A stretch of 64,000 nt of DNA from Dehalococcoidia bacterium (GTDB lineage: Bacteria > Chloroflexota > Dehalococcoidia > Bin125): contig OZ241982.1 of assembly GCA_965204335.1 (NCBI GenBank), positions 2,889,691-2,953,690 on the forward strand. The letters run 5' to 3'. The notes beneath the pieces were generated by a model. It did not search any database, was not told where the DNA came from, and worked only from the letters and a program-made list of their open reading frames with translations. The first letter of the stretch is position 1. Every line of letters begins with the position of its first letter. This document shows, in pieces, positions 13,157 to 44,119 of the stretch. Made by a program: the position numbers and the translations under genes.

Positions 13157-13822
13157 ATGCCGGAACTGCCGCTCTTTCCGCTTCAAATCGTCGTGTTTCC
13201 CGGCGAGTCGGTGCCGCTGCACATCTTTGAACCTCGCTACCGTCAACTGGTCAAGGACACGCTCCAAACCGGCGAACCGTTCGGCATCGTTCTGACACGT
13301 CGCACTCGACAACAGGCCGGCCCGGAGGATCGCGAGCCGACCCACGAAATCGGTTGCACCGTGCGGATGGAGTCGAATGAAGCGTTTCCCGACGGTCGCT
13401 TCAACATCGGCTGTATCGGCGAGCGCCGCTTCCGGATCATCGAGAAGTTGGGCGAACGGCCCTACTGGGTGGCCGAGGTGGAGTATCTCGACGATCCGGC
13501 CGACGCGGACTCGGCTGAGGCGTACATCTCATACGACACATCGGCTTCGCTCTACCGGGAGCACCTCGGACTCGCCCTGGCCCTGCAAAACTCCTGGCAG
13601 CGCACGTATCGCCTGCCGAGACGTCCCAATCCACTGGTCAATCACATCGCCTCGAGCATCGAAGCGCCGGCCTCGGTCAAGCAGGAGATCCTCAAGTCCG
13701 AGTCGACGGTGGAGCAACTCAATCTGCTCAGCCGGATCCTCAGGGCGTCAAACCGTCAACTCATGGATCGTGTCAGCCTGCATCACAAGCAGCGCTACGA
13801 GGGTCTCGGCGTCGGGAACTGA
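13157..13822 (+). CDS. LON N-terminal substrate-binding domain protein
   Basis: MPELPLFPLQIVVFPGESVPLHIFEPRYRQLV is the canonical Lon N-terminal domain start. Start codon is 3 nt after the HpaB-like stop. Confidence 0.7.
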   Translation: MPELPLFPLQIVVFPGESVPLHIFEPRYRQLVKDTLQTGEPFGIVLTRRTRQQAGPEDREPTHEIGCTVRMESNEAFPDGRFNIGCIGERRFRIIEKLGERPYWVAEVEYLDDPADADSAEAYISYDTSASLYREHLGLALALQNSWQRTYRLPRRPNPLVNHIASSIEAPASVKQEILKSESTVEQLNLLSRILRASNRQLMDRVSLHHKQRYEGLGVGN

Positions 13823-13831
13823 GCGACGGCT

Positions 13832-14242
13832 CTACTCCGTCAGCGGAGCCAGGATCTCCACCAGTTCCGCAACACTCTCGATGTCGGCGGCAATTGCGTG
13901 GGCATTCAGGAACCGTGCCCGACGATAGTAGTTGCCGTGCAGATCGTTCGCGATCGCTCGCAGCGGGCGAATCTGGTCATTGCCGGTCAGCTGCCAGGCA
14001 TTGTTCAGAACGTGGCTGAAGTCTCGGTGTCTGTCATACTCCCAGCCTTGCGCTGCCGCTACAGCCTTGGCCATGTGCGCAGCGGCGCCCCAGGCCTTCT
14101 CGGAGGCCTGATGCAAATCACCGGCGGCCACGTACTCTCGAGCCCGCTCCAGGAACTGCAGCGACTGCTGCGCGAAGTCTTCCACTTCAGCTCGATCTGC
14201 TGTCGTCATTGCATCGCCTCTCGCAGTTTCCGGCAGTTCCAT
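13832..14242 (-). CDS. small helical protein, PaREP1/HEPN-like (tentative)
   Basis: 136 aa. The EKAWGAAAHMAKAVAAAQGW segment is reminiscent of PaREP1-type helical proteins. Assignment is by eye only. Confidence 0.3.
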   Translation of the reverse strand: MELPETARGDAMTTADRAEVEDFAQQSLQFLERAREYVAAGDLHQASEKAWGAAAHMAKAVAAAQGWEYDRHRDFSHVLNNAWQLTGNDQIRPLRAIANDLHGNYYRRARFLNAHAIAADIESVAELVEILAPLTE

Positions 14243-14257
14243 CCTATCCGTGCCAAC

Positions 14258-15412
14258 TTACAGAGCGGTGATGCCGTTCTGGCGGATGTGACGGGTGACG
14301 GTCAGGCGCAGCAGTTCGGTTGGGCCTTCTGCGATTCTCAGGGAGCGGCTCGTGCGGTAGAGGCGCTCCAGCGGATGTCCCCGGAGCAGCGCCTGGGGTC
14401 CGTGGAGCTGGATGGCGCGGTCGACCGTCCGGTGCAGACACTCGGAAGCGAGCCACTTGGCTGCGGCAACCTGCGTGCCGGCGGTGGGCTCGTCGGCCTC
14501 ACGAGCGCCGGCGGCCTGGTACAGCGCGGTTCTCGCGGAGAACGTGTCGGCCGCCATGTCGGCGAAGATCGCCTGGACCTGCTGCTGCTCGGCCAGCGGT
14601 TGGCCGCTGCGATGCGGTCCCTCGATTCGCTCAAGCGTGGTGCGCAACACCCAACGCGACCAACCGACACAATCCGCCGCCACGCCGAGGCGCATGCGAT
14701 CGATGTTTTGCAGCGCGCGGGGCAGCCCGTCGCCGACGCTGCCCAGCAATCTCGATGCGGGCACGGCGACGGACTCGAAGTTGAATGGCGAGTGCGTGCT
14801 GCCGTCGATCGACGCGCCCAGCTCGCCCTCGGTCACGCCTTCCGCCTCCCGGTCGACGACCAGCAGTGCCGTTCCCTCGTCCGGCACGTTGGCGACCACG
14901 ACGAGCCAGTCGGAAGCCGCGCCTCCGGTGACGAACCCCTTCGATCCGGTGACGAGGAAGCCGTCTGAGCCGTCATCGAGCGTGGCGCGCAGCGCCTGGG
15001 TCGGCTGGCGTGTGCCGTCGGGTCGCAGAGCCTCGGTGAAGGCGAATGCGGCGGTTCGCTCGCCGCGCAGTACCGGGAGGTACAGCTCCTCACGCTGAGC
15101 ATCGTTGTCGGCGAAGCGCATGACGCCCGGGCCGGAACCGAGCGCTCGAGCGGCGATCGGGTTGCCGCTCAACGAAAGCGCCTCGTGTGCGGCCGTGATC
15201 GTCCGGGGTCCGGCGCCGAGACCGCCGTCGGCTTGGGGAACGGCCAGCTGGTAGAAACCGGCGGCATCGGAGCGTCTGGCGATCTCGCGGCGCAGTTCGG
15301 GCGACGCTGATTCGGGATCCTCGCCGGTCGTGATCGGGTCGATCTCGTGCTGGACGAAACTCAGCAGTCGGGACTGGAGGTCGGCGAGGTCGGCAGGCAA
15401 CTCGAAATGCAT
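14258..15412 (-). CDS. acyl-CoA dehydrogenase family protein
   Basis: 384 aa. The C-terminal ...QLHGPQALLRGHPLERLYRTSRSLRIAEGPTELLR is the ACAD C-terminal helical domain signature. Confidence 0.75.
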   Translation of the reverse strand: MHFELPADLADLQSRLLSFVQHEIDPITTGEDPESASPELRREIARRSDAAGFYQLAVPQADGGLGAGPRTITAAHEALSLSGNPIAARALGSGPGVMRFADNDAQREELYLPVLRGERTAAFAFTEALRPDGTRQPTQALRATLDDGSDGFLVTGSKGFVTGGAASDWLVVVANVPDEGTALLVVDREAEGVTEGELGASIDGSTHSPFNFESVAVPASRLLGSVGDGLPRALQNIDRMRLGVAADCVGWSRWVLRTTLERIEGPHRSGQPLAEQQQVQAIFADMAADTFSARTALYQAAGAREADEPTAGTQVAAAKWLASECLHRTVDRAIQLHGPQALLRGHPLERLYRTSRSLRIAEGPTELLRLTVTRHIRQNGITAL

Positions 15413-24926: not shown

Positions 24927-25003
24927 TGGTCGGAGCGGCCGGATTTGAACCGGCGACCTCTTGACCCCCAGTCAAGTGCGCTACCAAACTGCGCCACGCT
25001 CCG
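24927..25003 (-). tRNA. tRNA-Pro (anticodon GGG) with encoded CCA
   Basis: Reverse complement folds as a cloverleaf: acceptor CGGAGCG/CGCTCCG, U8, D stem GCGC/GCGC, anticodon stem CTTGA/TCAAG with loop CTGGGGG (anticodon GGG), T stem GCCGG/CCGGC with TTCAAAT loop, discriminator A, then CCA. Confidence 0.8.
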
Positions 25004-28056: not shown

Positions 28057-31000
28057 TTACGCCATCGCCAACGCCGTCAACAGCGCGGTGAGGACATCTT
28101 CCCAATCCGATTCGGCCAACCTTCGGGACGGTGTGTAGCGGACCTGGGTTGATCCGATCTGGACCTGGCGCGGCACGGCGATGCGGCGCTGATCCGGGCT
28201 GAACCTGAGCCCGGGCGCGAGCCTGAGGATGACCTGGTCTCCCTCCGACTGGATTGACTCGGCGCCGATCCTTGAGGCGAGCACCTTGAGCTTCACGGCT
28301 CCGAGCAGATTCGTCGTGGGGATCGGCAGCGGTCCGAAGCGGTCGACGAGTTCCCGGGCGAAGTCTTCCACCTCGTCCGGTGACTCCGCGGCGGCGAGCC
28401 GCTGATAGAGGGTCATCCGCAGGCCGAGGTCCGAGACATAGTGGTCGGGCAGGAACCTCGGCAGCGCGAGATCGACATTGACCCTGGTCCCTTGCCTGCG
28501 ACTGAGCGGTCGCTCTCCGCTGCGCCTGGACCTCGCCCGGTCGACGGCCTCGGCGAGCAGTTGGGTGAACAGCGTGAACCCGACCGCGCCGATGTGTCCC
28601 GATTGCTGCGCGCCGAGCAGATTCCCGGCCCCGCGGATTTCGAGATCCTTGAGCGCAATCTGGAAGCCGGCGCCGAGGTCGTCCGCCTCCATAATCGTCG
28701 CCAGGCGCCGTTGCGCGACCTCCGTCAGCGACCGATAGGGCTCGGTCATCAGGTAGGCGTACGCGCGGACGCTGGCGCGTCCGACGCGGCCCCGCAGTTG
28801 ATACATCTGGGCCAGTCCCAACCGTTCGGCGCGATCGAGGATGATCGTGTTGACGCGGGGGATATCGACACCCGACTCGATGATCGTCGAGCAGACCAGG
28901 ACATCGGCGTCGCCGTTGATGAAGCGTTCCATGTGATCGCGCAGGATGTTGGGCGGCATCTGGCCGTGGGCGATCAGGAATCGCGCCTCCGGCACCAGCC
29001 GGCGTAGCTCGATCGTTTCACGATCGATCGATCGGACCTCGTTGTGCAGGAAGTAGACCTGCCCACCGCGATCCATCTCGCGCAGGATGGCCTCGCGAAT
29101 CACGCTGTCGTCGCGTTCCATCACGTAGGTGCTGATCGGCAGGCGCTCCTCGGGCGGCGTCGCGATCGTGGACATGTCGCGGATGCCGGTCACGGCCTGG
29201 TGCAGCGACCTCGGGATCGGCGTGGCCGAGAGGGTCAGCACGTCGACCTCGCGTCGCAACGTCTTGAGCCGCTCCTTGTGTTCGACGCCGAAACGCTGTT
29301 CCTCGTCGATCACGACCAGCCCGAGGCTCTTGAAGGCGATGTCGTTCTGCAGCAACCGATGCGTACCGATGATGATGTCGACGGCACCGGAGCGCAGTCC
29401 GGCCAGCGTGACCTGTTGTTCGGCCGTGGTGCGCAGGCGCGACAGCAGATCGACCTGCACCTGCATCGCGGCGAGGCGCTGGCGAAACGTCTCATAGTGC
29501 TGCTGAGCGAGGACGGTGGTCGGCACGAGCACCGCGACCTGGTGTCCCGACATGACGGCCTTGAAGGCGGCCCGCACAGCGACCTCGGTCTTGCCGTAGC
29601 CGACATCGCCCACGATCAGGCGATCCATCGGCTTGCTGGCCTCCTGGTCCTGTCGCACTTCCTCGATCGCGCGGTGCTGATCGAGCGTCTCGACGTAAGG
29701 AAACGAGGCCTCCAGCTCGATCTGCCACGGCGTGTCGGGTTCGATCGCAATCCCGGGTTCGGTCTCTCGAGCGGCGTGGAGTTCGAGCAGGTCGTCGGCA
29801 ATCTCCGCCACCGCGCCTCGTACTCGGGCCTTGGCTCGCTGCCACTGACCGCCTCCGAGGCGGGTCAGAGTCGGCGGCGCATCCGACGGTCCGACGTAGG
29901 GCTGGACACGGTCGAGCTTGTCGGTCGGCACCAGCAGCCGGTCGCCCCTGGCGTACCGCAGGTCGAGGTACTCGCCCTCGCGTCCGCCGAGGCGTTCATG
30001 GACGATCCCGTGAAATCGGCCGATCCCGCTGTCGATATGCACAACGAAGTCGCCCGGCTTGAGAGTCTCGAGCAGATGCGGATCGGCCGCCGGAACCCCA
30101 CGTGTTCGCAACGGGCGACGCTGGCGTTGACGTTCGAAGCCGAAGATCTCGGTGTCGCTGATCAGCGTGAGCAGCCGCTCGCCGCTGGCTGGGTCGTCGA
30201 GCTGCCAGCCCTCCGCGATGGCGGCGCGTCCGACAGAGATGGCAGCCGGCAGAGGAGCCGTCTCGGCGGCTAGCGCTGCCAGCGGCAAGCCGAGATCGGC
30301 CATGAGCTCCGACAGCCGCGCCTCCTGTAGCGAGACGAGTACCCGGGCGCCCGAATCAGTCTGGGCTCGCAGGGACTCAAACAACTGGGCCAGCTTGCCG
30401 GCCAGACGCGGAGTGGAGCGGAACGGCAGGCGTTGGTCGCCGCTGCCGAGTCGGGAGAGCGATCGCACCGCTTGCGGGGCGCGCTTCAGTCGCGTCTCCA
30501 GCTCGTCCTGCTCCAGCCACGGATGCGGCAGCCCGAGCGGAATGCGGCCGCCGCGCTCCAACTCCTCGCGAGCGTGCCGGGCGCGTTCGTCGCGGTCTTC
30601 CATCCTCGAGGCGATGTCGTGCGGCTCATCGACAAGGATCAGAGCGTCATCGGGCAAGTGGTCGAAGATCGAACTCGATGCCAGGAACTGCGTCCAGAAG
30701 TCCGGCCGAGACGTCGGGGCGTCGCTACGCAGATGATCGAGGTCGAGCGCCAGCACGGCGGCCTCGTCGTTCAACTCCGGCGCCTCTTCTCCACTGGTGG
30801 CTTCCTCAACCGAGCAAAGCAGCGCCTCGATTCGCGGGCCCGAAGCGTCGCCCGCGCTCCACTCCCGCGCCGGCCGGACGCCGACCCGTTCGACGACTTC
30901 GGTGGAGCGCTGAGTCGTCGGATCGAACCGCCGCAACGACTCGACCTCGTCGCCGAACAGCTCGACCCGTACCGGCGCGTCGTCCGCGGGCGGCCAGAGG

Positions 31001-31563
31001 TCGATGATCCCGCCGCGGACGGCGAAGCAGGCCGGTTCCACGACGATCCGGCTTCGCTGATAGCCGCTTGCGTCCAGCGCCCGCACGAGTTCGTCGAGGC
31101 GGACGTCCGATCCCCGGCTCAGGTCGATCGGGGCGGAGGCGGCCGAGACAGTGCGCTGGGCAGCGGCATCGATGTCGGCCACGATGACCGGCGATGCGTG
31201 GCGCAGAGCTTCGACCGCGCTGAGTCGCGCCTCGATAAGATCGGGCGCCGGACGTTGACGTTCGTACGGCGCGGTCTCCCGTGCGGGGAAGGAGCGCAGG
31301 CGGCCGCGATCATCGCCGCCCAACCAGAGCGGGAGGGCGTCCAGCAGATCGGCGGCCGAGGCAGGCGTCGGGGTCAGAACCAGGACGGGCTGTCGATGAC
31401 GCGCGACGAGCGCCGCGATCACCGCCGGCTTGGCGGCGTCGATGACGCCCAACGTGTCCTGGCCGTCAAAGGGCTCGATCGCGTTGAGCACAGCGGGGCC
31501 CAGCCCGGCGAGCAGGCCCACCGGTCGATCGTGAGGGGTGCCGTGCGGGTCGGCGGCGCTCAC
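28057..31563 (-). CDS. mfd: transcription-repair coupling factor
   Basis: 1168 aa. Helicase motifs ...VIDEEQRFGVEHKERLK..., SATPIPR and a TRCF C-terminal domain. pth lies upstream in the same orientation. Confidence 0.9.
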   Translation of the reverse strand: MSAADPHGTPHDRPVGLLAGLGPAVLNAIEPFDGQDTLGVIDAAKPAVIAALVARHRQPVLVLTPTPASAADLLDALPLWLGGDDRGRLRSFPARETAPYERQRPAPDLIEARLSAVEALRHASPVIVADIDAAAQRTVSAASAPIDLSRGSDVRLDELVRALDASGYQRSRIVVEPACFAVRGGIIDLWPPADDAPVRVELFGDEVESLRRFDPTTQRSTEVVERVGVRPAREWSAGDASGPRIEALLCSVEEATSGEEAPELNDEAAVLALDLDHLRSDAPTSRPDFWTQFLASSSIFDHLPDDALILVDEPHDIASRMEDRDERARHAREELERGGRIPLGLPHPWLEQDELETRLKRAPQAVRSLSRLGSGDQRLPFRSTPRLAGKLAQLFESLRAQTDSGARVLVSLQEARLSELMADLGLPLAALAAETAPLPAAISVGRAAIAEGWQLDDPASGERLLTLISDTEIFGFERQRQRRPLRTRGVPAADPHLLETLKPGDFVVHIDSGIGRFHGIVHERLGGREGEYLDLRYARGDRLLVPTDKLDRVQPYVGPSDAPPTLTRLGGGQWQRAKARVRGAVAEIADDLLELHAARETEPGIAIEPDTPWQIELEASFPYVETLDQHRAIEEVRQDQEASKPMDRLIVGDVGYGKTEVAVRAAFKAVMSGHQVAVLVPTTVLAQQHYETFRQRLAAMQVQVDLLSRLRTTAEQQVTLAGLRSGAVDIIIGTHRLLQNDIAFKSLGLVVIDEEQRFGVEHKERLKTLRREVDVLTLSATPIPRSLHQAVTGIRDMSTIATPPEERLPISTYVMERDDSVIREAILREMDRGGQVYFLHNEVRSIDRETIELRRLVPEARFLIAHGQMPPNILRDHMERFINGDADVLVCSTIIESGVDIPRVNTIILDRAERLGLAQMYQLRGRVGRASVRAYAYLMTEPYRSLTEVAQRRLATIMEADDLGAGFQIALKDLEIRGAGNLLGAQQSGHIGAVGFTLFTQLLAEAVDRARSRRSGERPLSRRQGTRVNVDLALPRFLPDHYVSDLGLRMTLYQRLAAAESPDEVEDFARELVDRFGPLPIPTTNLLGAVKLKVLASRIGAESIQSEGDQVILRLAPGLRFSPDQRRIAVPRQVQIGSTQVRYTPSRRLAESDWEDVLTALLTALAMA

Positions 31564-31655: not shown

Positions 31656-32711
31656 TCAACTCTGACTGTTCGGCACCAGCCGGTGCGGTCCAATGAAGCC
31701 GACATGGATGTTGCGGGTGCGGCCCTTGCTGTCGTCATAGAAGTAAAGCCGAGGGATGTGTTGACCGCCTCCCTCGGCGATTTTCATGTGCGCCTCCATG
31801 GTGATGTAGCCGCTGGGATCGACGCTGCTGTCGACGAGGAAGCGTCTCGTGCGGCGCAGTGGGCCCGAGTTCATGACCGTGTCCGACTCGCTCATCGCCA
31901 GCTTCTTCGGCGTCGCCGGCCAGAGATTGTCTTCGCTGTTGGAATGCTCGCACCACTCCCAGAAGCCGCCCTGGAAGAACTCGCTCTCCTCGGCGTAGGC
32001 GTTGAGCGCCCGGCACGCCTTCCACAGTTCGCGCGCCCAGTCCGCCGCCTTCTCGTCGGCCTCGAGCGCATCGATCTCACGCAGGGCTGGATCGCCGATG
32101 ACAACGCGGGCGCACTTTTCCCGCGCCATCTCGACCACCCCGGTGATCGTGAACTGCGCCTCGGCCTCGGCGATATCTTCCGCCAGATCGGACGGGGCCG
32201 CGTCGCGCTCGATCAGGGCTGCGGCGTAGCTGTCGCTCTTGGCGCGCAGCCGATTGACGGCCTGTTCCGCTTCCGACAGTTCGGCCTCCAGGTCGGCGAT
32301 CCGGGCGTCCGCGGCCTGTCGTTCCTCGACCAGGCGGACCCGTTCGGCCACGTGTTTCTCGTTGGATTGTTCGATTCGGGCTTCGCGATCGGCAAGCTGT
32401 TGTTGCAGAGTCGACGCCTCTCGTTCCAACGCTGCGACTCGCTCCGCGTCGGGCCGGGCAATCGTTCGCGGCTCGATCAGCATCAGCAGACGCTCGCGGA
32501 TTCGTTCAAGCTGCTCCGCCGTACGCATGATGTCGGCGCGTATCTCGGCCGGTTCGCGTTCGAGCAGGTAGCCAGCCAGTTCCCGCGCAGCCGCTTCGCT
32601 CAGCCAGTCGAAGGCAGGCGCGGCGAGCGCAGCGTCGGCGTTGGACCCCTCATCGTGTTCCGACATCGCTCGCTCCACTCTCGGCATCGACCACGGTTCG
32701 GTTGTAAGCAT
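31656..32711 (-). CDS. hypothetical coiled-coil protein with unknown C-terminal globular domain
   Basis: The N-terminal ~170 aa are strongly heptad/Ala-Glu-Arg rich. The C-terminal ~150 aa (…HIPRLYFYDDSKGRTRNIHVGFIGPHRLV) has no recognisable motif. The start may be one of the internal Met codons (for example 32666). Confidence 0.45.
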   Translation of the reverse strand: MLTTEPWSMPRVERAMSEHDEGSNADAALAAPAFDWLSEAAARELAGYLLEREPAEIRADIMRTAEQLERIRERLLMLIEPRTIARPDAERVAALEREASTLQQQLADREARIEQSNEKHVAERVRLVEERQAADARIADLEAELSEAEQAVNRLRAKSDSYAAALIERDAAPSDLAEDIAEAEAQFTITGVVEMAREKCARVVIGDPALREIDALEADEKAADWARELWKACRALNAYAEESEFFQGGFWEWCEHSNSEDNLWPATPKKLAMSESDTVMNSGPLRRTRRFLVDSSVDPSGYITMEAHMKIAEGGGQHIPRLYFYDDSKGRTRNIHVGFIGPHRLVPNSQS

Positions 32712-33327
32712 TCATCGCCGACTCAACCCCGTGTTCCAGCAAATGGACGACCGCCTCGGCGGCGCGTTTCTCCGCCCGGAACAGTAGCTGTCGTTCGGCC
32801 GGCGTCGGATCGCTGAGCAACCAGTCGGCGACATCGTCGGGATGATGCGAGGGCTTGCCGTCGACGATCGGCCGGCCGACGCCGATCCGCACGCGCGGGA
32901 AGTCGAGCTCGCCGATCACGGATTTGATCGAGCGCATGCCCCGCTGGCCCGCGTCGGAGCCGGACGGTCGGATGCGGATCCGGCCCGGTTCCAGGTCGAG
33001 TTCGTCGACGAGCAGGATGAGAGCGGACGGATCGGCGCGGTACTTGTCGAGCAACGACTGGACCGCCTTGCCCGACTCGTTCATGAACACGCGGGGAATG
33101 ACGAGCGCCACCGGCCCGTGCGCGGTCTCGGCCTGTGACACGCGAAAGCGCGACTCCCGCTCAAACGGCGGCAATCGCAGCATCTTGCGGATGTGCTCGA
33201 CCGATCGCGCGCCCGCGTTATGTCGATGCTGCGAGTAATCGGGTCCGGGATTGCCCAGCCCGACGATCAGTCGAGCGCCCTCAAGCGGCCTGAGCCCGCG
33301 CCGTCGGAGTCTGGGCAGTCGAGCCAT
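32650..33327 (-). CDS. pth: peptidyl-tRNA hydrolase
   Basis: LIVGLGNPGPDYSQHRHNAG is the Pth signature. About 190 aa core, with a probable non-ATG start inside the ORF. Confidence 0.85.
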   Translation of the reverse strand: MARLPRLRRRGLRPLEGARLIVGLGNPGPDYSQHRHNAGARSVEHIRKMLRLPPFERESRFRVSQAETAHGPVALVIPRVFMNESGKAVQSLLDKYRADPSALILLVDELDLEPGRIRIRPSGSDAGQRGMRSIKSVIGELDFPRVRIGVGRPIVDGKPSHHPDDVADWLLSDPTPAERQLLFRAEKRAAEAVVHLLEHGVESAMNAYNRTVVDAESGASDVGTR

Positions 33328-35015: not shown

Positions 35016-36758
35016 ATGATCATGCGATACAGCGATGACGAACTGCGTGCCAGGCTCCGCTTGGGCGAAGACACGCATTGGGAGTTCAAAGGGATTGAGT
35101 TTCGAGGTGACGAACCTGTCAGTGGACAACGCGACACATGGGCAGACGAGATCGTCGCGTTCGCCAACGCGCAGGGTGGCCAACTGCTGCTAGGCATATC
35201 GGACCACGGGGAGCTTCAGGGCCTGACCCGTGAACAGCTTGACCGCGTTGAGCGCCACATCATCGAACTGTGCCGTGACTCAATCAACCCTCCGATTCCT
35301 CCGGCTACACACAAATTCGAACTGGACGGCAAGGCATCCCTTCTGGTCGAAGTTCAGACAGGCTACGCCCAGCATGAATACAAGGGCCGTGCCTTCACAC
35401 GTGAAGGCAGCTCTAAACGCCTGCTCTCGCCGGATGAGCGACTGCGACTCGCCCAACGGCGTGGACAGGCGCGATTCCGCAGCTTTGACGAATCACCTGT
35501 TGCGAACACGGGAATCACCACCCTAACGGAACGTCTATGGAAGCCCTTGCTCAGTGCTGACCAGCACACCGAACCCGCGGTTGGCTTGCAAAAGCTCGGT
35601 CTCCTCACCGACGATGAACACGGAATTCAACGGGCATCCGTTGGCGGTGTCCTGTTGTGCACCGAGCGTCCCGAAGAGCTCATGCAGCAAGCCGTCATCA
35701 TCGCCACGAAATATCACGGTCGGGACGAATCTACACACCAAGTGGATACACAAACGATCACCGGCCCACTTCAGCGTCAAGTGGCAACAGGAGTGTCATT
35801 TGTCCGACGCAATATGTGGGTTGGGGCAGTAAAGGATCCTGGCCGCTTCGATTTGCCCGAATACAGTTTGGAAGCAGTGTTCGAAGGCCTGGTCAACGCG
35901 GTTGCCCACCGAGATTATACTGCGCGCGGCATGCGTATTCGGTTACGAATGTTTGACGATCGACTCGAGATCTGCTCTCCGGGGTCATTGCCGAATGGAA
36001 TCACGATTGATCAGATGGGCGCGTTACAGGCCACGCGCAATGTGGTGATTGCTTCCAACTTGAGCCGAATGCGCGTCTCCGGCATTGAGGGCTCCGAAGA
36101 CCGGCGATACTTCATGGAGACGCGCGGCGACGGCGTCATACGGATCCAGCGAGCGACACATGCGCTCACAGGAAGGATGCCTCGATTTGAGGTGATTGAC
36201 GATGTCGAGTTGCGACTCACCATCCCCGCAGCCCTTCCCTCCGCTGATTCTTTTCGGACCCACATCAATATCAAAGCGGATGGGAAGCCGGTCGAGGACA
36301 CGAACGTGCTGGTGGTATTCCCAAATGGTACCTATCGACAGGCAGTCACAGATCGACTTGGTGTCGCATCACTCGATCTATACACAGGAACCTTGCCAAT
36401 GACGGTGTATGTCGCTTCGACAGGCATGGCAGGACGCGTCGTGCAGGAGTGGATCCCTGCTGAATCACAGCTCACAATTGACCTCAAGCCGCTGCCTGGC
36501 GGAGGATCGGTGATCATACCGGATCAGACCGGACACATTCCGGTGATCCGTGGACGACTGAATCCCATCCTGGACGACTTGAACAGGGCGTATCTCTATG
36601 CCTCAAACGTCGCCATCAACGACGGGGAAGCGCAGCCTGTGGCGTTCCGGCCGGGCGACGAAGAACTCAAACTCGTCGATGCGTTCGGAAACGGTTGCTA
36701 CATTCGCATCGTGGCGATAGTAGGCAGCTCGTCTCTGATTGAGTATCGCCCTGAGTAG
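35016..36758 (+). CDS. AlbA_2 (Schlafen-like) + HATPase_c_4 fusion protein with extra ~200 aa C-terminal domain; AT-richer than the flanks
   Basis: N-terminal ...LGEDTHWEFKG...DEIVAFANAQGGQLLLGISDHGE is the AlbA_2/divergent-AAA DNA-binding domain. Mid-region ...LVNAVAHRDYTARGMRIRLRMFDDRLEICSPGSLPNGIT is the HATPase_c_4 (RecG C-terminal-like) signature. The last ~200 aa are unassigned. Confidence 0.65.
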   Translation: MIMRYSDDELRARLRLGEDTHWEFKGIEFRGDEPVSGQRDTWADEIVAFANAQGGQLLLGISDHGELQGLTREQLDRVERHIIELCRDSINPPIPPATHKFELDGKASLLVEVQTGYAQHEYKGRAFTREGSSKRLLSPDERLRLAQRRGQARFRSFDESPVANTGITTLTERLWKPLLSADQHTEPAVGLQKLGLLTDDEHGIQRASVGGVLLCTERPEELMQQAVIIATKYHGRDESTHQVDTQTITGPLQRQVATGVSFVRRNMWVGAVKDPGRFDLPEYSLEAVFEGLVNAVAHRDYTARGMRIRLRMFDDRLEICSPGSLPNGITIDQMGALQATRNVVIASNLSRMRVSGIEGSEDRRYFMETRGDGVIRIQRATHALTGRMPRFEVIDDVELRLTIPAALPSADSFRTHINIKADGKPVEDTNVLVVFPNGTYRQAVTDRLGVASLDLYTGTLPMTVYVASTGMAGRVVQEWIPAESQLTIDLKPLPGGGSVIIPDQTGHIPVIRGRLNPILDDLNRAYLYASNVAINDGEAQPVAFRPGDEELKLVDAFGNGCYIRIVAIVGSSSLIEYRPE

Positions 36759-36769
36759 CGCAGTCTTCG

Positions 36770-38182
36770 CTACACGGACCGCAACCCCGACGCCTTCCTG
36801 AGCGCGTTTGCCGCTCGCTCGAAGCTGGGGAAGGTGGGGATTCCTTCTTCTTGCAAGCGGAGCCTGGCCTTGAGGGCGGCCTCTTCCACGTGACTTGGAT
36901 GCAGCGCGGCGAGGAACGGCTTTCCGCTCTCGTCCCGGAAGCGCTTGATGCTGTTGATCAGGCGGTCGAACTCCTCGGGCTTGTCCTGCCAGCGGCGGGC
37001 CATGAACGTGGCCGAGAGCTCCATCCCGACGGCGTCGATGTTTTCGTCCCGGTTGAGGATGTCGAAGATCGTGTCGAGGTGCTTGGGGTCCTGGCCGATG
37101 GTGCCGGCGGCGTCGAGCGGGTTGCGGTAGCTGCCGCCGATGATGTTGAAGAACTCCGAGAGCTGGGCGTAGCTGACCTCCGACAGAGTCGGTACCTTCC
37201 AGCCCGCCTTCTCAAATGCGTCGGTCAGGACGACCGACTGCCCGCCGGTCATTGCGATCAGGCCGAGCCGGTTGCCCTGCGCGCGCTTGGTCAGCAGCGT
37301 CGCCTTGACCACGTCGATCATCTCGTCGAGGTTGTGCACTGCGACCGCGCCGACCTGCTTGATCATCGCCTCCCAGATTGCCTGGTCGCTGGCCAGCGAG
37401 GCCGTATGCGAACGGATCGCGCGTCCGCCGCCCTCGGTCTGGCCGCCCTTCCAGATCACCACCGGCTTCTTCGCCGCGACCTCGCGCAGCGTCTTGAAGA
37501 GGCGCTGGCCGTCGCGCGCGCCCTCGATGTACATGCCGATCACCTCGGTCTGCGGATCGTCGGCGAGGTATTCGAGGTAGTCGGCGGCTTCGAGGATGAT
37601 CCCGTTGCCGAAGCTGACCAGGGTCGAGCAGTAGAGTCCGTGCGCCGCGCCGGTCAGGGAGAAGTTCATCCCGTGCGTGCCCGACTGCGAGACGAAGCCG
37701 ATGTTGCCCTGCACGCCCGCCGGCTGGTCGCGGTTGAAGCGCACGCCGAGTCCGGGCACGTGCAAACCCATGCAGTTGGGGCCGATCAGCGCGAGGCCCG
37801 ACGGGTCGGCGATCTCGAAGATCTTGTTCTGCAACTCGACGCCGATGTCCTCGCCCGTCTCGGCGAAGCCGGACGTGAACAAGGTCACTCCGCCGACGTT
37901 GGCTTCGACGCAACCCTGGACGATGAACGGCGCCACCTGCCGCGGTACGGCGCAGACGGCGAAGTCGACCTGATCGGGGATGTCGGTCAGCGACTTGTAG
38001 TTGGGGATGCCCAACTCTTCAATCCCGGGAATCTCGTTCTCGTCGACCTGGACGCTGTACACCGGGCCGTCGAACTCCTTCATCGAGCGCAGCCAGTTGT
38101 AGCCGCTGGCCTTCTTGTCGCCAATCACGGCGACCACCTTGGGCGCCAGCGCGCGGGTCAGGCGTTCACGTGTAACGGCCAT
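36770..38182 (-). CDS. acetyl-CoA synthetase (ADP-forming) alpha subunit, CoA-binding and ligase-CoA domains
   Basis: VAVIGDKKASG... CoA-binding Rossmann fold. The mid-region with H (…SHTAS…) matches the phosphohistidine loop of the succinyl-CoA ligase alpha fold. 470 aa. Confidence 0.75.
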   Translation of the reverse strand: MAVTRERLTRALAPKVVAVIGDKKASGYNWLRSMKEFDGPVYSVQVDENEIPGIEELGIPNYKSLTDIPDQVDFAVCAVPRQVAPFIVQGCVEANVGGVTLFTSGFAETGEDIGVELQNKIFEIADPSGLALIGPNCMGLHVPGLGVRFNRDQPAGVQGNIGFVSQSGTHGMNFSLTGAAHGLYCSTLVSFGNGIILEAADYLEYLADDPQTEVIGMYIEGARDGQRLFKTLREVAAKKPVVIWKGGQTEGGGRAIRSHTASLASDQAIWEAMIKQVGAVAVHNLDEMIDVVKATLLTKRAQGNRLGLIAMTGGQSVVLTDAFEKAGWKVPTLSEVSYAQLSEFFNIIGGSYRNPLDAAGTIGQDPKHLDTIFDILNRDENIDAVGMELSATFMARRWQDKPEEFDRLINSIKRFRDESGKPFLAALHPSHVEEAALKARLRLQEEGIPTFPSFERAANALRKASGLRSV

Positions 38183-38203: not shown

Positions 38204-38247
38204 TCTCCCCCCGCTTCGCGGGGGGAGATGCCGCAGGCAGAGGGGGG
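38204..38247. repeat. GC-rich REP-like hairpin element (tctccccccgc-ttcg-gcggggggaga + tgccgcaggca + gagggggg)
   Basis: Perfect 11-bp inverted repeat with a TTCG loop, followed by a second short palindrome. The same unit recurs at 39079, 42813 (inverted) and 44811. Confidence 0.7.
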
Positions 38248-38278: not shown

Positions 38279-38983
38279 CTAAGACTCCGAAGTCAGCAAG
38301 ATTCTCGCATCCACCGCGATTGCGCCGTCGGGACGAGCAAAGACCGGATTGAGGTCCAGCTCCGCGATCTCCGGGTTCGCTTCGGCGAACTCGGAGAGTT
38401 GCAGCAGCATCGACTCGATCGCCTCAAGGTTGGCCGCCGGCTGACCGCGGAACCCTTCGAGCAGCGGGAAGCCCTGGATCTCGCGGATCATCTCTGACGC
38501 GTCGCGCGGCTCCAGCGGGACGATGCGGAACGCGACGTCCTTGAGCACCTCGACGAACACGCCGCCCAGACCGAACATCAGCACCGGACCAAACTGCTGA
38601 TCCTGGGTGATGCCAAGAATCACTTCCGCGCCCGCTTCGGCCATCGGCTGCACCGAGACGCCCTGGGCCTGGGCGTCGGGCACGGCGGCGATCACCCGCT
38701 CGTGGATCCGCTGACAGGCCGCGCGCAGCGCGTCCTCGTCGGCGACGCCCAGTTCGACCCCGCCGACATCGGTCTTGTGCGTGATCTTGTCGGAGACGAC
38801 TTTGAGCGCGACCGGGTAGCCGAGTTCGGCCGCGTGAGCGGCGGCCTCGTCAATCGACGTGGCCAGGCGGGTCTCGGTCACATTAATCCCGGCCTCGGCG
38901 AGCATCTGCTTGGCTTCGACCTCGGACAGGATGGTCCGGTTCGCAGCGCGCGCGGCGGCAATGACGTCAGCAGTCATGGGCAT
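38279..38983 (-). CDS. acetyl-CoA synthetase (ADP-forming) beta subunit, ATP-grasp domain
   Basis: ...EAKQMLAEAGINV...GYPVALKVVSDKITHKTDVGGV... ATP-grasp pattern. Immediately downstream of the alpha subunit. Confidence 0.7.
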   Translation of the reverse strand: MPMTADVIAAARAANRTILSEVEAKQMLAEAGINVTETRLATSIDEAAAHAAELGYPVALKVVSDKITHKTDVGGVELGVADEDALRAACQRIHERVIAAVPDAQAQGVSVQPMAEAGAEVILGITQDQQFGPVLMFGLGGVFVEVLKDVAFRIVPLEPRDASEMIREIQGFPLLEGFRGQPAANLEAIESMLLQLSEFAEANPEIAELDLNPVFARPDGAIAVDARILLTSES

Positions 38984-39032
38984 CTCCGTCAGAATGGGAG
39001 CAATATCTGGCCGCAGAATACACGCCGATCCC

Positions 39033-39127
39033 CCTCTCCCCCGCTCCGCGGAGGACGATGTCCCGTTCCCTCATCTTCTCTCCCCCCGCTCCGCGGGGGG
39101 AGATGTCCCGTAGGGACAGAGGGGGGC
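39033..39127. repeat. two tandem copies (one degenerate) of the REP-like hairpin element
   Basis: ctctcccccgctccgcggagga... is degenerate. tctccccccgctccgcggggggagatgtcccgtagggacagagggggg is intact, with GTCCC-GTA-GGGAC as the second hairpin. Confidence 0.65.
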
Positions 39128-39208
39128 TCCGTATCTCGCCTGCACCGGCTATTCTGTATACTCAGTTTCGCAGTTCGGAATCACTGACGAACCGCAGAGG
39201 AGTAGGCC

Positions 39209-39427
39209 ATGGCCGAGGGTGACCCGTTCGAGGACTGGCTGGACATCGTCGAGGCGGCGAGAGAACTCAACATCCACCCGCAATCCATGCGCCGCCTGAT
39301 CAAGCAGGGCCGCGTTCCCGCCCGGCTCTATGGAGGCAAGTACCTCATCGAGCGAGACCAGCTCCTGATGTTCAAGTCCAACTACGACCCCCGCCCAGGT
39401 CGGAAGCGGTCGCCGCGGCTGCTCTGA
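39209..39427 (+). CDS. excisionase-family helix-turn-helix DNA-binding protein
   Basis: 72 aa. The LDIVEAARELNIHPQSMRRLIKQGRVPARLYGGKYLIERDQL HTH_17/Xis-type motif. Confidence 0.55.
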   Translation: MAEGDPFEDWLDIVEAARELNIHPQSMRRLIKQGRVPARLYGGKYLIERDQLLMFKSNYDPRPGRKRSPRLL

Positions 39428-39941
39428 CACATTCGTCGCCAACCCAAGCATCTCTTGCCTCGCCCAACTGGGTGACGACACCGAGCGTGTCCCAGATGCA
39501 TCCGCTCGCGCAATCGAAACGGTTCCAATGAAACGCTTGGTTGTTATGCCTGTGAGAGAACTCAGCTTGATAAGGCGCGAAAAGCACGCCTCGGTACTCG
39601 ATCTTGACTCGTTGCCAATCAATGTGGAGGCCAAATCCGCCGTTGCAGGCCCGATGTACTGGCTCCCTGAATCTTCGTACGAAGTCTCGTATCTCTGCTT
39701 GGTTTGTCACTGCTAGGACATACTGAAGCTCAATCTCAACTGGCGACGCGTATCGCCACTGCTCCTGCACATCACTCCACTCTGGATCTCCGGAGGCAAG
39801 TCGATTCTTGACGAACTCCAACCAGCCGCAATCGGACTCATCGCCGAGCCAGAGTCCCGCAGGCTTATGTTCGTTGTCCCGTGATCGGGGAAACCGGGAG
39901 ATTTCCACTAGCGGTTCTGCAGAAAAGTGGTACAGTCGCAC
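39372..39941 (-). CDS. hypothetical protein in AT-richer islet
   Basis: 189 aa ORF. Composition is clearly AT-richer than the window average. The N-terminus is MRLYHFSAEPLVEI. No assignable domain. Confidence 0.4.
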   Translation of the reverse strand: MRLYHFSAEPLVEISRFPRSRDNEHKPAGLWLGDESDCGWLEFVKNRLASGDPEWSDVQEQWRYASPVEIELQYVLAVTNQAEIRDFVRRFREPVHRACNGGFGLHIDWQRVKIEYRGVLFAPYQAEFSHRHNNQAFHWNRFDCASGCIWDTLGVVTQLGEARDAWVGDECVRAAAATASDLGGGRSWT

Positions 39942-40017
39942 TCTCTCCGCTTGACCTTCCTAGCCAAGTGATCGACGTACTCGTAATGCGCCACCCGAGT
40001 CATCTCGCGACCTGCCT

Positions 40018-40122
40018 CTAGATCATAGCTCGTTTGTCCGCAATCGGGCCCAGTGCGCCCCTGAAGATCCTGTCCACCACATGCGGCTCGGCCAACGTCT
40101 TGACGTCGCTGACGCTGTTAGC
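40018..40122 (-). pseudogene. diverged fragment of an acs 3' end (last ~30 codons) with no upstream gene body
   Basis: The minus-strand translation ...[19 protein letters not shown]... aligns to the C-terminus of the intact acs at 40767 (...[18 protein letters not shown]). About 71% nt identity over 48 nt. Stop codons lie immediately upstream. Confidence 0.5.
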
Positions 40123-40600
40123 CGAACGCTACTAGCAACCCCACCGCGAGCGTCGTGGCCGCAAACCCGAGACCGACCGCACCGAGAACCCATTGACGCA
40201 TCTTCGAGTCTCGATCCTCTTGATCCCGTACGCGTTGCCTCTCGCGCTCATCTCGTTCGCGCTCGCGCTCGTCTCTCTGGCGCTCGCGCTCGTCCCGCCC
40301 GCGTTCGCGTTGATTGTTCTCTTCACGAAACTCATTGATCTCTTTGCGGATTCCATTCATCTCCGACCGGATATCAGCCATGAATTGCGCCTGCTGCGCT
40401 GCGATTTCGGCCCGTTCCGCTCGCCACTGATCGAGCAGAGATTCAAGCGCCGACTCCGTTACGAACGGAGACAGCGCTTGATCGAAGAGGTCGTCGAGCA
40501 ACGTTGCCATCGGCTCAGCCTGGCCATTCTGGCAGACGCCGGTGTCGACGAGCCGATCACGAGTCTCTAGGACGTCGATCGATGACATATCGCTCTTCAA
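40118..40600 (-). CDS. coiled-coil protein with (ER/DER) repeat and C-terminal TM anchor
   Basis: 160 aa. ERERQRDERERERDERERQR repeat, then WVLGAVGLGFAATTLAVGLLVAFG. Same architecture as the DUF1640-like paralogs. Confidence 0.45.
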   Translation of the reverse strand: MKSDMSSIDVLETRDRLVDTGVCQNGQAEPMATLLDDLFDQALSPFVTESALESLLDQWRAERAEIAAQQAQFMADIRSEMNGIRKEINEFREENNQRERGRDERERQRDERERERDERERQRVRDQEDRDSKMRQWVLGAVGLGFAATTLAVGLLVAFG

Positions 40601-40748
40601 TCTGCGGACGCAGGATGTCGGCGAGCAGGTGTGACTTCTCCTCCGTCACGTACCCGTCTGCTACCACTTTCTTCCGGATGTCCTCAAGGATTTCCTCAAG
40701 CTTCCACGCCGGAATGGGCTTGGTCTGAGCCTTGTGGACCTTTGCCAT
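40557..40748 (-). CDS. small hypothetical protein (63 aa) immediately downstream of acs
   Basis: ORF only. Overlaps the next ORF by 44 nt. No motif recognised. Confidence 0.3.
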   Translation of the reverse strand: MAKVHKAQTKPIPAWKLEEILEDIRKKVVADGYVTEEKSHLLADILRPQIEERYVIDRRPRDS

Positions 40749-40766
40749 ACGACCGATTCTACCCTT

Positions 40767-42749
40767 CTAGTGCGCCGACGACGCTCCCTCGATGATTTCC
40801 TCGACCACGTGCGGCTCCGCGAGCGTTGTCACGTCGCCGACGTTTTCCGGCTCGCCTTCCGCGACCTTCCGCAGGATTCGGCGCATGATCTTGCCTGAGC
40901 GGGTCTTGGGCAGGCCGCCGACAAATTGAATCCTGTCCGGCGTCGCGATCGGACTGATCTCCGACCGCACCTGGCGCTTCAACTCGACCGCGAGGTCGGG
41001 GCCAGGGTCGAAGCCGTCCTTGAGCAGCACGTAGGCGTAGATGCCCTCGCCCTTGATCTCGTGCGGGTAACCGACGACCGCGGCCTCGGCGCAGCCCGCG
41101 TGACCGACCAGTGCGCCCTCGATCTCCGCCGTGCCCAGGCGGTGACCCGACACGTTGAGCACGTCGTCGACGCGCCCCGTCAGCCAGTAGTAGCCGTCGT
41201 GGTCTCGGAACGAGCCGTCGCCGGTGAAGTACTTGCCCGGGTACTGGATGAAGTAGGTGTTGATGAAGCGCTCGTGGTCGCCGTAGACGGTCCGCATCAT
41301 CCCGGGCCAGCTCCGAGCCAGGCAGAGCAGGCCGCTCTGAGGGTTGCCCTCAAGCTCGTTGCCGTCGGGGTCAACCAGCACCGGCTCGATCCCGAAGAAG
41401 GGCAGCGAGGCCGAACCCGGCTTCATGTCGTTGGCGCCGGCCAGACCGGTCAGCACGTGTCCGCCGGTCTCGGTCTGCCAGTAGGTGTCGACGATCGAGC
41501 AGCGCCCCTCGCCGACGACATCGAAGTACCAGCGCCAGGCCTCGGGATTGATCGGCTCACCGACCGTGCCCAGCACCCGCAGACTCGTCCGCTGGTGGAC
41601 CTTGACCCACTCGTCGCCCTCGCGCATCAGTGCGCGAATCGCGGTCGGCGCGGTGTAGAGGATGTTGATCCCCAGCCGGTCGATCATGTCCCAGTAGCGT
41701 CCGGCGTCGGGATAGGTCGGGATCGACTCGAACATGACGGATGTCGCGCCGTTGCCCAGCGGCCCGTAGACGATGTAGCTGTGACCGGTAATCCAACCCA
41801 CGTCGGCGGCGCAGCAGTAGATGTCGCCCTCGCGGTAGTCGAAGGTGTAGCGGTGGCTGAGCATCGTGAACAGCAGGTAGCCGGCCTGCGTGTGCAGCAC
41901 GCCCTTGGGCTTCCCCGTCGAGCCTGACGTGTAGAGGATGAACAGCGGGTCCTCGGCGTCCATCACCTCCGGTTCGCATTCGTCCGACTGGTTGGCGACG
42001 GTCTCATGCCACCAGACATCGCGGCCGTCCTGCATCGTTACGTCGCCGCCCGTGTGCTGATGCACGAGCACAAACTCGACGCAGTCGACGCCGGCCGCGT
42101 CGAGCTGGTCCATCGCCGCGTCGACGTTGGCCTTGAGCGGCACGGTGCGGCCGCCGCGCTTGCCTTCGTCCTGCGTGATCACCGCCTTGCACAGCGAATC
42201 CTCGACCCGATCGGCGATCGCCGAGGCGGAGAATCCGCCGAAGATCACCGAGTGGATCGCGCCAATGCGGGCGCAGGCCAGCATCGCCGCCACGACCTCG
42301 GGCGTCATGCCCATGTAGATCGCGACGCGGTCGCCCTTGCCCACGCCGCGGCTGCGCAGTTCGTTCGCCAGCCGGCAGACCTCGGCGTGCAGTTCGCGGT
42401 AGGAGATCGACTCGTTGTCGGCCGGCTCGTCGCCTTCCCAGAGGATCGCCGTCTGGTCGCCGCGCGCCTCGAGGTGCCGGTCGAGGCAGTTGACCGAGAC
42501 GTTCAGCTTCGCGCCCAGGAACCAGGCGATCTCGCCCGAGGCCAGGTTCTCTTCCTTGAGCGTGTGCCAGGGCTCGATCAGGTCGAGGTGCGCATTGGCC
42601 ATCTCGGTCCAGAACGCGTCCGGCTCATCCAGCGAACGCCGCCAGAGCGCCTCGTAGCCCTCGCGCGACGTGACCAACGCGCCCTCGCGCACATTCTCAG
42701 GCGGCGAATACGTCTCGTTGACCGGCATGGCGGCATCGGCGGTTGTCAT
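40767..42749 (-). CDS. acs: acetyl-coenzyme A synthetase (AMP-forming)
   Basis: 660 aa. Acs N-terminus ...[18 protein letters not shown]..., the AMP-binding motif [12 protein letters not shown], and the C-terminal ...[10 protein letters not shown] signature. Confidence 0.9.
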
Positions 42750-42812: not shown

Positions 42813-42855
42813 CCCCCTCTGCCTGCGGCATCTCCCCCCGCTTCGCGGGGGGAGA
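42813..42855. repeat. REP-like hairpin element in inverted orientation
   Basis: ccccctctgcctgcggcatctccccccgcttcgcggggggaga is the reverse complement of the 38204 element. Confidence 0.7.
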
Positions 42856-42949
42856 AGGGAAACCGACGCCGCCGCGAGGGCGCGTTTCGCAGTGATACGC
42901 TGCCGATATCGAAACAGCCGCGAAAGTGCCGATCCGAAAGGTCCCACGA

Positions 42950-43920: not shown

Positions 43921-44094
43921 ACCCTCTCCCTCGACGAAAGGGGAGCCCATATGCCCCCTCCCTCTGGGAGAGGGCAGCCGGGCAACTCCCTCTCCCTCTG
44001 GGAGAGGGCCGGGGTGAGGGCTCCGGCGGCCGAGGGCCCTCACTCCCCGCCTCACGCGGGGGCAGGCTCTAACCCTCTCCCTCAGGGAGAGGGG
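43921..44094. repeat. tandem cluster of 4-5 short hairpins (CCCTCTCCC-N3-GGGAGAGGG type) in a 210-bp intergenic gap
   Basis: Two perfect 9-bp-stem hairpins (43989-44009 and 44072-44092), two degenerate copies, and CCCCGC-CTCA-GCGGGG. Confidence 0.65.
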
Positions 44095-44119
44095 ATCCGC
44101 GGAAGACAGACAGTGGAGG

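Follow-up and report, generated by a model that had tools for sequence, protein, structure and literature searches.

A short copy of the 3' end of acs, lying apart from the intact gene, in DNA of deviant composition and close to a gene with an excisionase-type fold, raises the question of whether a site-specific mobile element once integrated at this locus or whether the duplicated gene end has another origin. The locus is part of a 64,000-nt stretch of the genome of a Dehalococcoidia bacterium (assembly GCA_965204335.1, contig OZ241982.1, positions 2,889,691 to 2,953,690 of the forward strand), which is referred to here as the window; all coordinates are positions within it unless a related locus is named. 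Between acs, which encodes the AMP-forming acetyl-CoA synthetase (Acs), and acdB and acdA, which encode the ADP-forming enzyme, the window carries a two-gene module (orf63-orf160), the stray acs fragment (acs'), orf189 and a small helix-turn-helix gene, HTH72 (Table 1). A sequence-only reading of the window had offered two explanations: a decayed integrated element flanked by attL and attR, or cargo brought along from the acs locus of a donor. Of these, the latter is supported by the acs'-spacer-orf189 DNA, which is unique to the window, and by the varied junctions found in its relatives. We conclude that acs' is probably the scar of an additive insertion, by homology-facilitated illegitimate recombination (HFIR) or of Campbell type, at a strain-variable hotspot between acs and HTH72 in sponge-associated Dehalococcoidia.

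A strain-variable site between acs and HTH72

A scan for Acs in species-representative genomes yielded 17 metagenome-assembled genomes (MAGs) of Dehalococcoidia/Chloroflexota (L001-L017), several of which are sponge bins with RHO-type names. The DNA-level comparison covered 16 relatives (L001-L016), L017 being left out for its truncated contig, and four further loci (L087-L090) were obtained through homologues of orf160. Amino acid identity of Acs is 84 to 98% in the Dehalococcoidia relatives L001-L015 and 72% in L016, and synteny is kept; an exact-match look-up of the window's own Acs returned no record.

The interval 39130-40767 had been described as an AT-richer islet, and the sliding GC and tetranucleotide calculations bear this out: its GC content is 58.2%, against a window mean of 66.0% (standard deviation of 2.4% for windows of the same size), which places it at the 1.2nd percentile. 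Ranked by tetranucleotide distance, nothing else in the 64 kb deviates as strongly as this islet and a second islet, at about 34.5-36.8 kb. The deviation is not uniform, however. It is restricted to 39428-40766, so that the islet as first drawn holds for that part and not for HTH72, which is native-like (GC content of 64.4%; GC content at third codon positions [GC3] of 0.85). The lowest values belong to orf189 and the adjacent spacer (55.4% GC; GC3 of 0.58 for orf189), followed by orf63-orf160 (58.7% GC; GC3 of 0.67 for each gene), compared with GC3 values of 0.91 for acs, 0.91 for acdA and 0.84 for acdB in the flanks. In every locus close to the window, the GC content of the hotspot DNA is likewise below that of its flanks.

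HTH72 had been listed as a Xis/HTH_17-type gene of the islet. Its fold is as proposed: the protein matches Pfam HTH_17 (E=1.3e-10) and excisionase PHROGs, and it barely passes the cutoff of the TIGR01764 "excise" domain (29.3 bits against 28.8). Its place among the islet cargo cannot be upheld, since the gene is core, has a native GC3 and is kept at empty sites. In L003 and L004, the hotspot is empty and acs and HTH72 are only 43 nt apart; the empty site therefore has the order acs-HTH72-acdB, where direct adjacency of acdB and acs had been expected, and HTH72 is a core gene and not cargo. Of the 21 related loci that were compared, 19 have it beside acdB (those named being L001-L013, L015, L016 and L087-L089). 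The exceptions are L014, where HTH and acd genes are missing from the vicinity, and L090, which has been rearranged by insertion sequence (IS) fragments. In close relatives, the identity of the protein is 89 to 100%. As an excisionase, HTH72 thus has the fold but fails on context, that is, on co-inheritance with a mobile element and an integrase. Its divergent orientation to acdBA, and its frequent position in the relatives immediately before cargo that reads in the same direction, make a small chromosomal regulator the more plausible reading. A search of PDB sequences with HTH72 gave nothing significant, a metagenome scan with it gave four loci only, none of them informative on the hotspot, and a promoter and terminator scan of 38900-40900 found neither. 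Two tandem HTH72 paralogues adjoin acdB in the more distant relatives L012 (L012:12721-13173) and L013 (L013:11029-11478).

When the variable region was compared with the 16 relatives by blastn, the orf63-orf160 module was found in many of them, the fragment matched only the 3' ends of their acs genes, and 39428-40053 had no match. For every relative, the homology to the window breaks off exactly at the stop codon of orf160 (40118) and at that of HTH72 (39425-39428); in each locus, homology to the empty site reaches as far as the acs and HTH72 stop codons and no farther. In L001, L005 and L088, orf63-orf160 occupies the same site without any fragment and is followed by a spacer of 12 to 20 nt and then by HTH72. 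The near-conspecific L087 is 94.8% identical to the window over acs and the module, and 97 to 100% per 100 nt over the module alone, but it lacks orf189 and shares no DNA with 39428-40117; the homology of the window to L087, L001 and L088 ends precisely at the orf160 stop codon. Past that stop codon, L087 carries a 17-nt spacer, the last 91 nt of an HTH gene (HTH'), the last 15 nt of acs (TCGTCGGCGCACTAG), a GPP34-P450 fusion gene and then a full HTH72. Since both the joint and the cargo after the orf160 stop codon differ, these were separate additions: the window and L087, although near-conspecific, each gained a different unit at an L088-like site, through different joints. To judge from the sequence comparison, the newcomer in the window would be acs' together with the spacer and orf189.

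The stand-alone acs 3' fragment, first reported at 40063-40110, was recovered by each method applied and extends over about 40054-40116; its minus-strand translation, with stop codons directly preceding it, is as claimed. It begins 0 to 3 nt past the orf160 stop codon. Its local alignment with the acs 3' end scores 40, against 16.1 +/- 2.5 (maximum of 29) for 500 shuffles; tblastn with Acs as the query picks it out of the whole window (E=0.003, and E=7e-6 in the reverse search), and by blastn it matches the acs genes of relatives with 77 to 85% identity (E of about 1e-6 to 4e-7). The fragment is no nearer to the window's own acs than to other acs genes, and it differs by about 22 to 23% from any acs sampled. 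Third-position divergence between the window and L087 is 16%, both lineages counted, and a fragment divergence of about 22% is more than decay in place since the split of these two would allow; over about 60 nt, this is no more than suggestive.

What fills the site differs widely from locus to locus. Apart from the empty sites of L003 and L004 and the sites of L001, L005 and L088 that hold orf63-orf160 only, there are tandem orf160 paralogues (L089 and L012), DUF4238 genes (L002 and L012), 550- to 640-aa proteins without a Pfam domain that form two paralogous groups (L006-L009), the GPP34-P450 fusion of L087, a CBS protein (L090) and a phosphoribosyltransferase (L016). The genes for the 550- to 640-aa proteins lie immediately downstream of HTH72 copies (L006:10415-12301; L008:10969-12882 and 13337-15082; L009:10777-12621 and 13182-14840); this family, with about 27% identity between the two groups and 40 to 47% within them, is changing much more quickly than the core genes on either side.

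In 7 of about 20 related loci, different cargo genes are separated by partial copies of the acs 3' end, the HTH 3' end or both. In coordinates (q) of the L003 empty site, used as the query, acs ends at 300 and HTH72 spans 345-563. On this scale, L009 reads acs, orf63, orf160, acs' (q185-301), paralogue A, HTH' (q345-473) joined to acs' (q106-304), paralogue B and HTH72; L007 and L008 read acs, X, HTH' (q345-523), paralogue A, HTH' (q345-485) joined to acs' (q106-304), paralogue B and HTH72; and L090 reads acs, two small ORFs, acs' (q82-301), orf63, orf160, the CBS gene, HTH' joined to acs' (q106-301), orf63, orf160 and IS fragments. The HTH'/acs' junction common to L007, L008, L009 and L090 (93% column identity, with the same filler), in a subclade whose acs genes are 95 to 96% identical, is a single shared event. 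If this junction is counted only once, the approximately 21 loci have at least six joints of independent origin, all with different breakpoints: the starts of the acs' copies vary by event (about q82, q106, q185, q225 and q285), some junctions have HTH' only, and several joints link a truncated HTH copy to a truncated acs copy. The joint of the window, between the orf160 stop codon and acs' at about q225, is unique, and five other distinct joints are found in the relatives. Truncated copies of both genes with varied breakpoints therefore point to the stacking of allelic acs-HTH versions and not to a fixed att core.

As an observation on the shared junction itself, the HTH'/acs' module of about 380 nt (L007:12917-13284, L008:12887-13254, L009:12714-13081 and L090:6464-6827) is 92 to 97% identical despite different flanking cargo, which is slightly more conserved than the third codon positions of acs in the same genomes (86 to 90%), and it has an open 48-codon HTH' frame (MAMYRPIKQNRIPARLYGGKYLIERDQLLMFKSNYDPRPGRKRSPRLL) directly upstream of the cargo gene.

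The gene ends that border the site are themselves unusually diverged. The last 200 nt of acs are 2 to 4 times more diverged than the rest of the gene in six of seven close pairs (p of 6e-3 to 3e-9), and between the window and L087 the final 100 nt of HTH72 reach only 89% identity, compared with 97% for the adjoining 100 nt. Divergence in the ends of acs and HTH72 around a near-identical module therefore fits repeated homologous exchange with crossovers in the gene ends, where tracts received from divergent donors would terminate. Neither the scan of the larger hotspot ORFs nor the precomputed annotations of the approximately 21 loci revealed an integrase or recombinase domain; the only transposase-type matches are DDE fragments in L090, and no conserved motif was seen in the spacers by inspection. 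The absence of a surviving integrase from the ORFs of the islet thus extends to the scanned hotspot ORFs of the relatives.

Insertion route and competing explanations

From this anatomy we infer a donor structure, an order of events and a molecular pathway. The gap between the convergent 3' ends of acs and HTH72 would be a strain-variable recombination hotspot, which in the lineage of the window may at first have been occupied by the orf63-orf160 operon alone. Later, a segment of a donor locus with the order acs-orf189-HTH72 would have been added, not exchanged. On the right side, homologous recombination would have taken place in the 3' end of HTH72 or past it; the left side would have been closed by an illegitimate join between the donor acs, about 75 nt before its stop codon, and a point 1 to 2 bases past the stop codon of the recipient's orf160. 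The product would read acs, orf63 and orf160, followed at the joint by acs' (about 60 nt), the spacer, orf189 and HTH72. The spacer is presumably the donor's acs-orf189 intergenic DNA, and the last approximately 200 nt of acs would act both as a homology arm and as the origin of the stray copies. The acs' fragment, the spacer and orf189 are contiguous and in the same orientation and are therefore arranged as expected if orf189 lay just downstream of the donor acs. The pathway would be HFIR or, as a topologically equivalent event, Campbell insertion of a circularised allelic segment, and neither an integrase, an att site nor an excisionase function would have a part in it. Both marks of HFIR are seen: homology is present on one side, where HTH72, acdB and acdA are collinear with all relatives and homology resumes exactly at the HTH72 stop codon, and the other side has an event-unique nonhomologous joint with a truncated piece of the donor flank. 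Because acs' would have arisen at the illegitimate left join of an additive insertion, we regard it as a nonfunctional passenger scar.

Several points weigh against this reconstruction. The donor allele acs-orf189-HTH72 was found neither in the 16 representative relatives nor in the metagenome scan, which is why its structure has to be inferred. At the joint there is only a loose CGG..AA match to the acs consensus, and the donor sequence is needed to judge microhomology. About 60 nt is too short for a divergence of 22 to 23% to prove foreign origin over decay in place. Experiments find the process to be rare, yet at least six independent additions are counted in about 21 loci, which leaves room for a dedicated or facilitated mechanism, and a trans-acting recombinase encoded outside the 64 kb seen of this genome could still have been involved.

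A scar without a foreign donor would result if the acs-HTH72 interval had been duplicated in place, by unequal or illegitimate crossing-over, and the cargo had then been replaced or had diverged. The shared subclade junction is accommodated well by such a tandem duplication: in L007, L008, L009 and L090, the layout of the HTH'(q345-485)/acs'(q106-304) junction is exactly that of a simple duplication, the two cargo genes of L007-L009 are distant paralogues (about 27% identity) that each directly follow an HTH copy, and the acs' copies of this subclade are nearer to its own acs (84 to 91%) than to any other. The window is accommodated poorly. Its units carry unrelated cargo and there is no HTH' at the join, so that an extra replacement and a deletion would be required; orf189 has a foreign GC3 and belongs to a phage-linked family; the fragment shows no special closeness to the window's own acs; and the closest relative, L087, lacks the junction of the window. 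We therefore consider in-place duplication to be an unlikely source of the scar in the window.

The high rate of events (at least six independent junctions in about 21 loci) would also be expected of a dedicated, integrase-independent platform for cassette stacking, in which the HTH gene, the acs end and the HTH'/acs' modules are kept as reusable arms for recombination and expression and HTH72 regulates the cargo. The conservation of the HTH'/acs' junction in four genomes, which is at least that of acs third positions, the retention of an open HTH' frame directly upstream of cargo, and the frequent co-orientation of cargo immediately downstream of an HTH copy are all in keeping with this idea. 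However, the breakpoints vary, the cargo of the window is convergent with HTH72 and not downstream of it, antisense frames remain open by chance where GC3 is high, the excess of conservation is modest and comes from one subclade, and there is no mechanism-specific gene. A platform of this kind seems improbable to us; if it did exist, allelic cargo, including the phage-derived, ADP-ribosyltransferase (ART)-like orf189, would be added in tandem at a rate far above that of ordinary illegitimate recombination.

The other explanation of the sequence-only reading, a decayed site-specific integrative element, would require an attP that mimics the acs 3' end, attL and attR represented by the intact acs end and 40054-40114, HTH72 as Xis, and an integrase that has been lost or acts in trans. 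The duplicated gene 3' end does bracket DNA of deviant composition, and the adjacent HTH72 resembles excisionases as described above. Tandem arrays with repeated target-gene ends are, moreover, known for site-specific islands such as the ssrA islands of Dehalococcoides, and tycheposons reportedly form such arrays as well. With tRNA and tmRNA islands, ssrA islands and tycheposons the acs-HTH72 site has in common that a repeated 3' end of a conserved gene brackets foreign DNA and that accretion is in tandem, but those systems have a fixed att core and their own integrase and duplicate the end of the target gene alone, whereas here the breakpoints vary, the opposite flank is also duplicated and an integrase was not found. 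The co-duplication of HTH' with acs' is unlike att recombination. HTH72 is a core gene of native composition that is kept at empty sites, the bracketed orf63-orf160 occurs without a repeat in L001, L005 and L088, the unique DNA (39428-40053) lies outside the bracket, and the approximately 21 loci show neither an integrase nor a conserved spacer motif. The integrative element thus fails on the integrase, on repeats with a fixed core and on the absence of the bracketed DNA from the empty site; its strict form is already contradicted, and we give any looser form very little credence.

Other kinds of insertion were considered and rejected. A Tn7-like insertion downstream of a conserved gene does not apply, as there are no Tns genes and Tn7 does not duplicate gene ends; an integron-like cassette does not apply, as there are no attC-like repeats at the boundaries; and a tRNA-type attachment site does not apply, as the sole tRNA gene of the window is a tRNA-Pro gene at 24927. 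A search of 34-45 kb against Rfam found no family, and a tRNA search found none nearby. Finally, the joining of two strain variants of a hypervariable region by a metagenome assembler is scarcely credible, for although the window and its relatives are probably MAGs from strain-rich sponge communities, the copies are diverged (71 to 85%) and truncated, with no exact overlap on which an assembler could act, and analogous structures occur in independent assemblies, including single-chromosome records of 2.9 to 3.6 Mb (L007, L008 and L087).

Genes of the site and other variable regions of the window

The features of the locus are listed in Table 1.

Table 1. Features of the acs-acdA region, in window coordinates
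Feature	Position	Strand	Description	Matches or comparison
acs	40767-42749	-	AMP-forming acetyl-CoA synthetase, 660 aa; conserved left flank of hotspot	Pfam ACAS_N, AMP-binding, AMP-binding_C
orf63	40557-40748	-	First gene of resident two-gene module	ORF list; homologues at same position in L001, L005, L009, L010, L087-L090
orf160	40118-40588 (or 40600)	-	Coiled coil and C-terminal transmembrane anchor; 156 aa from MSSIDVL; resident cargo ("unit 0")	
Junction and acs' fragment	40054-40117	-	Decayed copy of acs 3' end, ~60 nt, about codons 636-656; left end of added segment	
Spacer between acs' and orf189	39942-40053	-	112 nt	Without homologue in 16 relatives
orf189	39372-39941	-	Imported cargo gene	Large phage and bacterial family
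HTH72	39209-39427	+	72 aa, HTH_17 (excisionase/MerR-type); right flank and homology arm of hotspot	
acdB-HTH72 divergent intergenic region	38984-39208		Two G+C-rich palindromic repeats, 39038-39066 and 39079-39111	Further copies at 38204 and 42831
acdB	38279-38983	-	ADP-forming acetyl-CoA synthetase subunit	Pfam (acdA/acdB): ATP-grasp_5; Succ_CoA_lig and CoA_binding_2
acdA	36770-38182	-	ADP-forming acetyl-CoA synthetase subunit; core	acdAB syntenic in relatives

The two-gene module recognized earlier at 40118-40748 is real: orf63 starts 18 nt past the acs stop codon and overlaps orf160, so that the two genes are translationally overlapping, and the operon probably reads through from acs. No match to orf63 was found in Pfam, PHROG, NCBIfam or PADLOC, and orf160 has sub-threshold coiled-coil matches only (Pfam, NCBIfam and PADLOC). 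There are 69 homologues of orf160, and all of the named ones come from Chloroflexota MAGs. A 21-nt tandem repeat at 40241-40309 in orf160 encodes RDERERQ heptads, and the lengths of the homologues step by exact multiples of 7 aa (135, 142, 149, 156, 163 and 170 aa), which implies copy-number variation of the stalk, in the coiled coil of a tail-anchored membrane protein.

The product of orf189 had been taken for an orphan, which it is not: although a word-indexed protein search gave one match, an exhaustive HMMER search, by which alone the family became apparent, gave 1130 cluster representatives at E<=1e-3. Members of the family occur in 81 phage genomes (actinophages of Mycobacterium, Microbacterium, Gordonia and Nocardia), in one phage-like 154-kb contig and in bacterial chromosomes. 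Invariant or nearly invariant positions are H5 (in an HFS motif), K26-P27-x-G29-x-W31, W109, P123, which is followed by Tyr in the family consensus, and D143-C-A-S-G-C-I-W-D. The model of orf189 also matches giant-virus and phage "ART-PolyVal" proteins in BFVD, and an ART-like fold may tentatively be proposed for it. No match was found in Pfam, NCBIfam or PADLOC, and a link to ADP-ribosyltransferases at the sequence level emerged neither from a profile search of the family against PDB sequences, where nothing was significant, nor from a Pfam scan of 41 members, where nothing was consistent. A metagenome scan with orf189 found no relative. The orf189 frame extends 56 nt into the convergent HTH72, its last 18 codons being the antisense of the HTH72 3' end, and the homology of the family ends at about aa 160, before this antisense part. 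The frame thus runs on past its family homology, and the right boundary is therefore placed at the HTH72 stop codon. A toxin-antitoxin pair made up of HTH72 and the ART-like orf189 was rejected, since the genes are convergent and HTH72 is kept in genomes without orf189.

The window has further variable regions. The most tetranucleotide-deviant one is the second AT-rich islet (35016-36758, plus strand; 57% GC; GC3 of 0.62), which encodes a 580-aa protein with SLFN/AlbA_2 and HATPase_c_4 domains that matches pAgo-associated models of PADLOC (E=7e-16). The gene is absent at the same position, between acdA and the next core block, in L001, L003 and L006, diverged homologues are present in L007-L010, and in L089 a GmrSD gene takes its place. 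The region has the look of a further variable hotspot, of defence type, on the far side of acdAB. Farther away, about 1 kb (31656-32711) separates mfd (28057-31563) from pth (32650-33327), where L001 and L003 have only about 23 bp; an ORF of 351 aa, or of 377 aa on the opposite strand, lies in this DNA and has no Pfam match. The tRNA-Pro (GGG) gene (24927-25003) has metabolic neighbours (MaoC hydratase and DUF169), the adjacent kilobase is somewhat AT-richer (62% GC), and no integrase was found near it among the ORFs scanned at 24-33 kb.

G+C-rich palindromic intergenic repeats (TCTCCCCCCGCTTCGCGGGGGGAGA...) occur at 38204-38246, 39038-39111 and 42813-42857, with two tandem copies in the acdB-HTH72 promoter region, and a further palindromic repeat family (CCCTCTCCCTCnGGGAGAGGG) is found at 43921-44098. 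These repeats are REP-like and are also intergenic in L087 and L088.

Relation to known systems

HFIR has been described in Acinetobacter, Streptococcus pneumoniae, Pseudomonas stutzeri and Escherichia coli conjugation (PMC3240628), and it has been proposed to explain the "sequential displacement" arrays of type VI secretion system (T6SS) effector-immunity modules in Vibrio cholerae and orphan 3' ends of Rhs and contact-dependent inhibition (CDI) genes (PMC5361080). The acs-HTH72 site resembles these cases in having one homologous anchor in a conserved flank and one nonhomologous join, no integrase and event-specific breakpoints; as in the T6SS arrays, old modules are kept as new ones are added, and 3' remnants of conserved genes lie between modules. 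It differs in that no polymorphic toxin gene is concerned, the conserved genes being the housekeeping gene acs and one for a small HTH protein, and in that the cargo is heterogeneous (a coiled-coil membrane protein, the 550- to 640-aa proteins, a P450, DUF4238 proteins and an ART-like gene) and does not consist of toxin-immunity pairs. Remnants of both flanks are found here, and the pathway at this site is deduced from anatomy alone.

Hotspots of integration between core genes are also a feature of the E. coli pangenome (PMC2617782). Likewise, the acs-HTH72 site is a fixed interval between syntenic core genes that holds strain-specific accessory genes of deviant composition, and its flanks show raised recombination and divergence. 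Unlike those hotspots, the interval is very small (0 to 5 kb), is bordered by two convergent 3' ends and shows no mobile-element genes, and partial duplications of the flanks are unusually frequent.

We regard the additive insertion at acs-HTH72 as another instance of an already known process, which had not been described from this lineage before; only behind the high frequency of stacking might there be more. A duplicated gene end beside an "excisionase-type" gene can mimic an att-flanked island, which is of relevance to island callers and to the annotation of MAGs. In these uncultured, sponge-associated Dehalococcoidia, the interval between acs and HTH72 is a small and very active site of gene exchange, where different accessory genes are stacked without mobile-element machinery. 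Homologous recombination with illegitimate ends would accordingly be one of the routes by which these symbionts acquire genes.

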